In this document: positions 16,073 to 33,790 of the stretch, in pieces
How the letters are laid out: each line of letters opens with the position of its first letter
How positions within the stretch are numbered: position 1 is the stretch's first letter
Source of the DNA: Octopus sinensis
Taxonomy: Eukaryota
DNA: 33,821 nucleotides
Direction of reading: 5' to 3'
NCBI RefSeq assembly: GCF_006345805.1
Contig: NW_021832097.1
Location: 1 to 33,821, forward strand
Made by a program: the position numbers and the translations under genes
The notes under the pieces: model-generated
Told to the model about the DNA's origin: nothing
The model's input: only the letters and a program-made list of their open reading frames with translations
Databases searched by the model: none

Positions 16073-16210
16073 GAAGTACTTATTTTATCGGCCCCAAAAG
16101 GATGAAAGACAAAGTTGACTTCGAAAGAATTTGAACTCAGAACGTAAAGACGGACGAAATACCGCTAGGCATTTTGTCCGGCTTGCTAATGGTTCTATCA
16201 GCTCGCCGCC
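16073..16210 (-). mobile_element. tRNA-derived SINE family B, 5' part
   Basis: Reverse complement GGCGGCGAGCTGATAGAACC...GGTATTTCGTCC...GAGTTCAAATTC...CTTTCATCCTTTTGGGGCCGATAAAATAAGTAC, homologous to the 32.8-kb array. Confidence 0.85.
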
Positions 16211-26009: not shown

Positions 26010-26147
26010 TGGCAGCGAGGTCGATTTTGCCTTTCGTCCTCTTGGGTGTCGATAAAATAAATACTAGTTAAGCATTGTTCTCGATCATATCGAGTTATCC
26101 CTTCCTCTAAAATTGCTGGCCTTGTGCTCAAATTTGAAACCATTATT
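26010..26147 (+). mobile_element. SINE family B, 3' part
   Basis: GAGGTCGATTTTGCCTTTCGTCCT...GTCGATAAAATAA...AAAATTGCTGGCCTTGTGC. Confidence 0.75.
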
Positions 26148-26996: not shown

Positions 26997-27000
26997 TATT

Positions 27001-27108
27001 GACCTCAGAGGATTAGATGTAAAGTTGACTTCGGCCTGACTTGAACTCAGAACGTAAAAATCCGTGACATATAACGCAAGGCTCTCACAATTCTGCCTAT
27101 TGGCCGCC
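27001..27108 (-). mobile_element. SINE family B 5' fragment, degraded
   Basis: AAAGTTGACTTCGGC...TTGAACTCAGAACGTAAA...GCCGCC, as in 16073-16210. Confidence 0.7.
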
Positions 27109-29280: not shown

Positions 29281-29480
29281 GGTGGCGAGCTGGCAGAATC
29301 GCTGGCACGACAGGCAAAGTACTTTGCAGCAGTTCGTCCGTCTTTACGCTTTCAGAAGGAATTCCACCAAAATCTACTTAACGGTTTAATCCTTCGGGAT
29401 CGATGAAATAAGTTCCAGTTGAGCACTGGAGTCGATGTAATCGACTTACCCCTCCCCCAAAATGTCAGGCCTTGTGCTTA
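29281..29480 (+). mobile_element. SINE family B, full-length diverged copy
   Basis: Head GGTGGCGAGCTGGCAGAATCG, body CCAGTTGAGCACTGGAGTCGATGTAATCGACTTA, tail GGCCTTGTGC. Confidence 0.82.
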
Positions 29481-30063: not shown

Positions 30064-30210
30064 CTCAGTATTTGCTGGCTACTTCATCGATCCGAGCAGA
30101 TGAAAGGCGAAATCGAATTCGGTGCGATTTGAACTCCGAACGTAAAGGAATGTACTAAATACAGCAAGACAGTATATTTTGTACACTGTTGGTTGGGTTT
30201 CACTGCGTCA
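30064..30210 (-). mobile_element. SINE family B, degraded
   Basis: GATGAAAGGCGAAATCGAATTCGG...TTTGAACTCCGAACGTAAAG. Confidence 0.7.
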
Positions 30211-31437: not shown

Positions 31438-31640
31438 TGCGTGTGTGTGTGTGTATTTGTGTTGGTGTTTGTACCATTACTCCGCTTGACAACCGGTGTT
31501 GTTTGTTTACGTCTCTGTACCTTAGTGATTCGGTAAAAGCGACTGATAGAATGAATACCAGACTTTGAAAAAACAACAAATAAGTACTGAGGTCTGGTGC
31601 CTCAGAATGGCCGCAGCCCAATGAAGAATTAAAAGATAGA
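31370..31640 (+). mobile_element. SINE family A 3' half, degraded
   Basis: GCTTGACAACCGGTGTT...TTTACGTC...GATAGAAT...ATGGCCGCAG. Confidence 0.7.
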
Positions 31641-32509: not shown

Positions 32510-32802
32510 ACCCTTCCCAGGTGACGATAAGTAAGGTGACGTCGGCCAGTATCGAGAGAGTACGTGTAGACTGTGTTGATAGTCGTGTCTGTGCTGACGT
32601 AGTAATTCTACTTTGATACTAGGTGGACGTTGTAACGATCCTATCTTTTGAGGATAATAACGCTGTACGACTGGGAGTCATATACAGAACCATTCTATCG
32701 ATGACTTTGGAATATAGCAATGTCTGTCAGAGCGACATCCGTCGTCAAAAGACAGGCGCAACAGTGGCAAAAGACCACTTTACAATACCTTGTACGTCAG
32801 GT

Positions 32803-33507
32803 TACGTTCTGGGTTCAAATTTCGCCGAAATCAACTTTGCCTTTCTTCCTCTCAGGGTCGATAAATTAAGCACCAGTTACGCACTGGGGTCGATGTAATC
32901 GACTTAATCCGTTTGTCTGTCCTTGTTTGTCCCCTCTGTGTTTAGCCCCTTGTGGGTAGTAAAAAAATAGTTATTTCCTCTGCCGCTACGTTCTTAGTTC
33001 AAATTCCGCCGAGGTCGACTTTGCCTTTCTTCCTCTCGGGGTCGATAAATTAAGCACCAGTTACGCACTGGGGTCGATGTAATCGACTTAATCCGTTTGT
33101 CTGTCCTTGTTTGTCCCCTCTGTGTTTAGCCCCTTGTGGGTAGTAAAAAAATAGTTATTTCCTCTGCCGCTACGTTCTTAGTTCAAATTCCGCCGAGGTC
33201 GACTTTGCCTTTCTTCCTCTCGGGGTCGATAAATTAAGCACCAGTTACGCACTGGGGTCGATGTAATCGACTTAATCCGTTTGTCCCCTCTGTGTTTAGC
33301 CCCTTGTGGGTAGTAAAAAAATAGGTATTTCATCTGCCGCTACGTTCTGAGTTCAAATTCCGCCGAGGTCGACTTTGCCTTTCTTCCTCTCGGGGTCGAT
33401 AAATTAAGTACCAGTTACGCACTGGGTTCGATGTAATCGACTTAATCCGTTTGTCTGTCCTTGTTTGTCCCCTCTGTTTTTAGCCCCTTGTGGGTAGTAA
33501 AGAAATA
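32803..33507 (+). mobile_element. Tandem tetramer of head-less SINE family B (units of 167, 184, 170 and 184 bp) within one 19-bp TSD
   Basis: Units start at 32803, 32970, 33154 and 33324. AATACCTTGTACGTCAGGT at 32784-32802 and 33508-33526. Confidence 0.92.
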
Positions 33508-33644
33508 AATACCTTGTACGTCAGGTATTTGATCCAAGAAGTATATTTGTAAATTATCAGCATCAGTCAAATATCTTTTGTGGTGCGGTGTAGTAGTATT
33601 AGAGATCTTTGATAGGCATTCCGGTCATGACTACCACGCATATC

Positions 33645-33790
33645 AAGACGTTTGTTTACGTCCCTGTAACTTAGCGGTTTGATAAAAGAGACCGATAAAA
33701 TAAGTGTCGGACTTTATAAAACACGTATTGTCTTCAATTTGTTCGACTAAAACGTTTCAAGGCGGTGCCCCACCTTGGCTGCAGGTAAAA
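33645..33790 (+). mobile_element. SINE family A 3' fragment
   Basis: GTTTACGTCCCTGTAACTTAGCGGTT...AAAAGAGACCGATA...TCGACTAAA...AAGGCGGTGC. Confidence 0.78.

Follow-up and report, generated by a model that had tools for sequence, protein, structure and literature searches.

Dispersed tandem arrays of SINE units enclosed by a single pair of target-site duplications (TSDs), written TSD1-(SINE)n-TSD1, have been described in the blood clam Scapharca broughtonii, where they reach up to 15 units (PMC11481361). In squamates, tandem repeats of part of a SINE (sSat) have units of 70–290 nt; unequal recombination was proposed for their origin, and the same report mentions SINEs that amplify as dimers (PMC10702118). 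SINEBase defines complex (dimeric, trimeric) SINEs, such as Alu (PMC3531059), and metazoan non-LTR retrozymes are defined by hammerheads and circular RNA (PMC7761336).

The locus analysed here lies in Octopus sinensis, and the window is the whole stretch of 33,821 nucleotides, which constitutes an entire, microsatellite-rich 33.8-kb contig (C8568) of the 2.72-Gb assembly. Four tandem units of 167, 184, 170 and 184 bp sit flush inside a single perfect 19-bp TSD. The features are as follows:

32521..32788, + strand: older unrelated dispersed repeat, ~82% identical to its relatives, with the array inserted at its right end
32784..32802, + strand: left TSD, 19 bp, exact, flush with unit 1
32803..32969, + strand: unit 1, 167 bp, 5'-truncated, without the 49-nt head and unit bases 1–17
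32970..33153, + strand: unit 2, 184 bp
33154..33323, + strand: unit 3, 170 bp, with an internal 14-bp deletion relative to unit 2
33324..33507, + strand: unit 4, 184 bp, terminal, with the T/G tail haplotype
33349..33361, + strand: B-box-like motif GAGTTCAAATTCC of unit 4, a visual match to the Pol III box consensus
33465..33507, + strand: LINE-derived 3' tail (unit columns 142–184), assigned by identity to LINE 3' ends
33508..33526, + strand: right TSD, 19 bp, exact, flush with the end of unit 4

The TSD sequence has two copies in the whole window, both bordering the array, and the three internal junctions fall at the identical base each time. A first-pass annotation of this DNA had described four head-less tandem units within one TSD pair that is absent from the internal junctions, with internal units starting at the same base and a first unit shorter by 17 bp, and each of these observations held, unit 1 beginning at unit base 18. 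The 14-bp deletion of unit 3, which the annotation did not mention, lies between two GTTTGTC repeats, and gaps at this column are found in other arrays too. By TRF, the array has a period of 184, 3.9 copies and a score of 1214. Each unit has one candidate B-box-like motif, with the A-box-like motif located in the head that is missing from this copy, and a private change in unit 4 creates a T5 run at 33477–33481. The motif CTGAnGA is absent from both strands of the array, in agreement with the annotation's remark that there is no CUGANGA core. Older copies of the SINE body, 77–82% identical, reside elsewhere in the window (16076–16163, 26016–26097, 26997–27056, 29360–29448 and 30080–30144). The target site at 33508–33529 is a small inverted repeat with 7-bp arms and an 8-nt loop, of which the right arm resembles the start of the tail|body junction (J1) described below, probably by chance.

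J1 has 31,548 exact matches in the genome, with 0 for the reversed control, and the matches include many unlinked, TSD-flanked arrays. Among the first 100 listed matches, on contig C1, 81 arrays were parsed and seven overlapping loci were left out. A 49-nt head with the A-box-like motif stands at the start of 72 of the 81, which comprise arrays of two (51), three (20), four (7), five (1) and ten (2) units, and 31 close with a shorter B-type last unit that has a different tail. Across all loci fetched, 159 of 176 multimers are head-first. Flush TSDs of at least 10 bp were found for 50 of 174 multimers and 27 of 52 monomers, and in the control for chance, using mismatched flank pairs, such a flush repeat appeared in 3 of 864. 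The flush TSDs vary in length from 10 to 22 bp (73 of 276 elements), as is characteristic of tRNA-type SINEs; 71 of these 73 TSD-flanked elements start within the head, this array being one of the two exceptions, and 46 of the 73 have at least two units in a sample enriched for multimers. Monomers are common, making up 19 of 24 and 22 of 26 elements in samples chosen by tail. The tens of thousands of exact tail or junction matches describe an interspersed, short, high-copy family, again in keeping with tRNA-type SINEs, and its multimers are amplified as a unit with position-specific monomers, in the manner of a complex SINE. The family is thus built as head + (184-bp unit)n, and because of this layout the head missing from the present copy represents a 5' truncation, with 66 nt lost. 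We considered whether unit base 18 is a recurrent 5' stop, and rejected this, as with a TSD it occurs in this copy alone.

A- and B-box-like motifs were recognised in family members by eye, by comparison with the consensus. ARAGORN found no tRNA in the array, and Rfam searches of the array and four head-bearing loci gave no ribozyme (E up to 10) and no tRNA, with chance matches to microsatellites and one hairpin as the only output. A long, near-perfect, MITE-like inverted repeat with a (TA)n loop at L316:3020–3197 was the source of spurious miRNA matches. Ohshima and Okada reportedly described the octopus tRNA-derived SINEs OK, OR1 and OR2 in 1994; we take the head and body to be like these elements, and the family is presumably one of them. 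CORE-SINEs form a superfamily with a central CORE domain of ~60 bp, which the middle of the unit may resemble. Fourteen arrays stop part-way through the last unit (columns 28–109), and one of them, L093, is nevertheless bounded by a 23-bp TSD, which hints that priming took place within the RNA. Two further SINE-derived tandem arrays were noted, one on the T/G tail with ~30 matches at ~53-bp spacing (G000:C1:13006832–13008481), and one on tail B with six matches at 175-bp spacing and its own junction (G000:C10695:10705–11607).

The first-pass annotation had proposed the junction search, expecting that many unlinked arrays with the same junction would support a multimeric or circular-RNA route. 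The arrays were found as predicted; however, the junction of a circle is also the genomic junction, so the recurrence of J1 does not separate a circle from an inherited junction. J1 follows a Y/G tail 31,548 times and a C/A tail 691 times, whereas tails without a following G are of the C/A type in 21,273 cases and of the T/G type in 18,794. Were J1 remade by a jump to a free RNA end, the preceding tail should mirror the RNA pool, which it does not. Joins of tail B near the J1 start base number 13, of which two are direct and the others have head bases or other filler in between. A C at column 172 marks 30 of 38 terminal units but 7 of 127 non-terminal ones (p = 4e-19), and terminal units are also set apart from non-terminal ones at columns 126 and 153, positions outside the search pattern (p = 3e-8 and 5e-8), with the segmental duplicates L141/L142 and L171/L172 kept in these position counts and in the two-unit sharing reported below. 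Where an array ends in tail A (37 cases), its final pair of tails is T/G then C/A in 20 and T/G twice in 5. For 25 dimers, the distance between units within an array (0.109) exceeds that between one first unit and other first units (0.093, p = 0.005), and no within-array distance is below 0.04. Haplotype linkage and unlike dimer units are the prediction of inheritance from compound masters, while copying from one circle would be expected to yield like units that lack the head. From these patterns, J1 looks to be inherited from compound masters, and the tandem master locus that the annotation had offered as an option fits the family layout.

The J1-linked tail carries AGTAAA in place of the AATAAA of the LINE and of the C/A tail (columns 172–178, for example 33495–33501); speculatively, loss of this polyadenylation-like signal at an internal tail might aid read-through. 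A second fixed junction, J2, has 3,205 matches (for example L119, L124, L134 and L181) and is placed where the tail end and the head at base 17 have 5 nt, AGAAA, in common; the tail involved is mostly of the C/A type. In a sample enriched for both, the internal junctions comprise 198 J1, 40 J2 and 14 others. The J2 dimers L124 and L134 have near-identical units (distance 0.027–0.028), so J2 may have formed anew from monomers. Nesting of young A copies into old B copies was also considered and is not favoured, although it may apply to the first origin: the heads of A-B dimers look A-type in age (0.10 against 0.155 for B monomers), first and last units have diverged to a similar degree (0.084 and 0.100, respectively, p = 0.07), and B monomers, at 0.129, have diverged further than the last units (p = 0.04).

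The growth of the array to four units can be followed through the variants that its units share. The annotation had cautioned that units 2 and 3 share variants, and indeed these units alone carry those at columns 2, 9 and 26 and have 0 substitutions between them. Relative to the family majority, variants at columns 61 and 66 are present in all four units, and those at columns 86 and 179 in units 1–3. Unit 2 is like unit 4 over columns 27–69 and like unit 1 over columns 86–184, a pattern that a crossover between the end units near columns 70–85 would give; units 2/3 differ from units 1 and 4 at ~4% of sites. Because 17 bases present in the internal units are missing from unit 1, the inserted cDNA must have contained two or more units, and an origin by duplicating a truncated monomer is ruled out. 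Repeated copying of one RNA would produce a star pattern, which the nested subsets of the array do not fit; in a star simulation that assumed uniform mutation, five subset-shared variants as in the array arose in 1 of 200,000 trials. Of the annotation's proposal that the array was inserted as one multimer, the part that stands is an insertion of at least two units, whereas the nested variant sharing speaks against four at once.

Among 54 arrays with at least three full units, rare variants are shared by subsets of units in 39, only across all units in 4 and not at all in 11. In arrays of this size, left-shared variants have a median column of 148 (n = 26) and right-shared variants one of 43 (n = 23; p = 1.6e-5), and 37 shared variants are scattered rather than polar. 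Longer arrays show crossover polarity, and this array fits it. The polar sharing in arrays of three or more units corresponds to the hallmark of sSat, in which part of a SINE expands locally in tandem and is homogenised. Higher-order repeats of two-unit blocks, with alternating haplotypes or deletions, were observed in L181 and L301. Adjacent units of two-unit arrays share 0.57 rare variants per pair compared with 0.076 for unrelated units, and 6 of 56 such arrays share at least two against an expected 0.3%, so conversion or some same-template copying occurs. These samples are non-random, being mostly the first matches on contig C1 chosen by junction or tail patterns, and 28 sampled arrays were chosen by their likeness to this array. 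The pairs L141/L142 and L171/L172, candidates for sibling retrocopies, were rejected as such on finding that their flanks are shared, which identifies them as segmental duplicates. A 32-mer private to the array has four copies in 2.72 Gb, none of them outside this array's units, and the best other genome match to units 2–4 is 94%, hence there is no near-identical or recent source in the assembly.

The SINE tail matches the 3' ends of zf-RVT LINEs with up to 88.6% identity over 44 nt, including the last AATAAAGAAAT, and so has the LINE-shared 3' end expected of a tRNA-type SINE. In one copy of the partner LINE, ORF1 has a zf-CCHC domain and ORF2, of 1128 aa, combines endonuclease, RT and zf-RVT domains, a layout that we take to be of the L1/Tx1 type, the clade being assigned by domain layout and not from a tree. 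An exact look-up of the LINE ORF2 gave no match, and the ESM Atlas placed it in RT/zf-RVT clusters that bear no clade name. L1-Tx1 elements have been listed among the recently active LINEs in Octopus vulgaris (PMC13282606). Site-specific targeting of the junction by the partner LINE is weakly rejected, since the J1 sequence follows 0 of 21 exact LINE tails, a small sample. The window also contains, at 2108–2147 and 2240–2577, the 3' ends of another zf-RVT LINE family sited in (TATC)n runs, many copies of which are 95–97% identical. The last 42 nt of this family are 76–80% like the SINE tail, and the LINE end at 2240–2577 was accordingly rejected as the tail source, being more distant than the zf-RVT family at 88.6%. 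At unlinked loci, several zf-RVT LINE families (L278, L279–L284, L260/L261 and L268/L273) precede the same sequence, as would be expected of target-specific elements. The sequence downstream of L278 has the appearance of the 5' end of U1 snRNA.

Read support was obtained for both ends of the array. A short-read contig from run X1 covers the 5' end (32687–32843) with 0 differences, and one from run X4, a different study, covers the 3' end (33486–33678) with 3 differences in 193 bp. Among the contigs listed for four runs, no read or contig spans the array, and because of this the unit number of four is without independent confirmation. An empty site was not found among the 15 joints listed in the four runs' contigs (360 more exist), nor was an empty site or haplotig seen in the assembly, where the upstream flank matches only the older repeat family, at no more than 84% over its length. 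The unit count could be wrong through misassembly of a small unplaced contig, with fewer units in the true allele; the window is the whole 33.8-kb contig, units 2 and 3 are nearly identical, and the array is unspanned by any listed read or contig. Against this, the 14-bp deletion is peculiar to unit 3, units 1, 2/3 and 4 are distinct at many sites, the short-read contigs match both array ends, and chromosome-scale contigs commonly carry multi-unit arrays, which together make such an error very improbable.

Among explanations that accept four units, the extra units may have been made at insertion, by a reverse transcriptase that slips or switches between units of a dimer RNA or between SINE RNAs. 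Slippage of this kind predicts the observed left/right polarity. Recombination between copies is evident from mixed A/B-end arrays with both junction types, rare variants are shared within dimers a little more often than chance predicts, the 3,205 J2 matches lie at a 5-nt AGAAA match of tail and head, and GGTA follows 12 of 50 terminal T/G tails compared with 0 of 50 C/A tails, a hint of priming inside multimer RNA. However, units 2 and 3 are free of substitutions, carry three changes absent from unit 4, and stand ~4% from units 1 and 4, so that their duplication would have come well after the split of units 1 and 4, and the two-unit blocks repeated in L181 and L301 are usual in DNA-level expansion. 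At this locus, only the young age of the unit 2/3 pair counts against slippage, which we judge quite unlikely here. A broader proposal, unlikely in our estimation, is that multimers are still built at the RNA level, the L1/Tx1-type reverse transcriptase priming inside multimer RNAs and switching templates between SINE RNAs. If true, the SINE would spread as an open-ended modular chain with shuffled units, junctions and tails, tens of thousands of TSD-bracketed satellite seeds would have been planted, and part of the unit number would be set at insertion, with neither ribozyme nor circle.

The perfect 19-bp TSD, and the two private variants common to all four units, would also suit a whole tetramer that was recently retroposed in one piece from an expanded, homogenised tandem source locus (the tandem master of the annotation), and head-bearing, TSD-flanked arrays of 3–10 units that could be transcribed do exist. 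A recent source should be near-identical unless it is missing from the assembly, and yet no source or sibling was found there, the private 32-mer being confined to this array and the best other match reaching 94%. The 3' junction is moreover present in another study's sample, where 3 of 193 bp differ; this points to an insertion of some age, and we consider a one-piece tetramer decidedly improbable. One route of the kind that the first-pass annotation had put forward, a ribozyme-free 184-nt circular RNA copied by rolling-circle reverse transcription in the manner of a retrozyme, could account for a fixed junction at 31,548 places, the single TSD pair that encloses the array, the missing head of this copy, and the 4 of 54 longer arrays that share variants only across all units. 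It sits poorly with the head, which lies outside the unit and begins about nine in ten arrays (72 of the 81 sampled through J1 and 71 of the 73 with TSDs), with dimer units that differ by haplotype, with the 31 of 81 arrays that terminate in another tail, and with nested sharing in this array unlike one-template copying. No ribozyme was detected by the CTGAnGA motif or Rfam, and the predicted fold of the unit is no more stable than those of shuffled sequences (z = 0.74), in contrast to retrozyme circles, for which extensive self-pairing is described (PMC7761336); the head plus body start also has no unusual stability (z = −0.27). The array does not point to a circular-RNA route, for which we see hardly any probability, and the annotation's claim of a circular or de novo multimer origin is not sustained.

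Our preferred reading, to which we assign a probability of roughly 70%, is that a compound SINE, bearing an inherited junction and truncated at its 5' end, was retroposed in the form of a dimer or short multimer, and that unequal exchange at the locus later raised the number of units to four. It draws together the observed family layout, the linkage of haplotype to junction, the nested sharing of variants, and the identity between tail and LINE; the transcription, the enzyme and the order of events are inferred. Pol III would start at the A box of the head and the B box of the first unit, reading through across the units, which normally have no T4 run. An L1/Tx1-type LINE sharing its 3' end with the tail would then prime reverse transcription at a tail, and its machinery would make the 19-bp TSD, with reverse transcription halting 66 nt short of the 5' end so that the head was lost. 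A crossover or slippage involving units 1 and 4 near columns 70–85 would produce a mosaic middle unit, which would mutate and then duplicate again to give units 2 and 3. Several points weigh against this course, among them the scattered shared variants and the excess sharing between units of two-unit arrays noted above. The variants at columns 61 and 66 are in all four units, beyond what expansion alone would give, and so expansion plus contraction, gene conversion, or a pre-homogenised source would be needed; a change private to unit 1 at column 69 (a CpG site) adjoins the column 61/66 tract; and RT slippage on a dimer RNA would give identical polarity.

In comparison with the described systems, the octopus arrays can be set beside those of the clam: in both, a mollusc genome contains dispersed tandem arrays within one TSD pair, with the full head (tRNA-related in the clam, putatively so here) in the first unit and later units cut at the same head position (PMC11481361). 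They differ in that clam internal units lack part of the 3' tail, whereas octopus units each have the full tail, and in that ~3% of clam copies are tandem, while here the J1 count of 31,548 is of the order of the terminal-tail counts; the clam report's passages on tandem structures contain no test of junction inheritance. Similarly to squamate sSat, terminal units are longer and homogeneity rises with unit number, although the present array is short, with two middle units, and the sSat study mostly counted four or more (PMC10702118). With complex SINEs as defined in SINEBase (PMC3531059) this family has in common that a transcript of several units, each specific to its position, is amplified as a single element; the octopus family departs from them in its open-ended unit number, in later units with a B-box-like motif but no A-box-like one, and in the coexistence of three alternative last units (tail A T/G, tail A C/A and tail B) and two fixed junctions. 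Retrozymes likewise have 150–300-bp tandem units inside a TSD (PMC7761336). The octopus array, by contrast, has neither a hammerhead ribozyme in each unit nor a stable self-paired fold, and the family has a putative Pol III-type head, a LINE-derived tail and units that are non-identical by position; the head in 72 of 81 arrays and the haplotype difference between dimer units are not those of a single circular template. In a literature search, outside the 1994 octopus SINE paper and repeat databases, we found neither the multimer layout of this family nor its L1/Tx1-type partner.

The locus itself is ordinary, and it is the family that provides a useful system: its dispersed SINE multimers, delimited by TSDs, run to many thousands, have one inherited junction in common and carry marked end units, with a tail that ties the SINE to an L1/Tx1-type LINE. 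The array also carries a warning, that a single TSD around a tandem array does not prove one-time insertion of the whole array. With such a family, the first steps from retroposon to satellite, namely the rate, breakpoint position and homogenisation, can be measured across independent loci.
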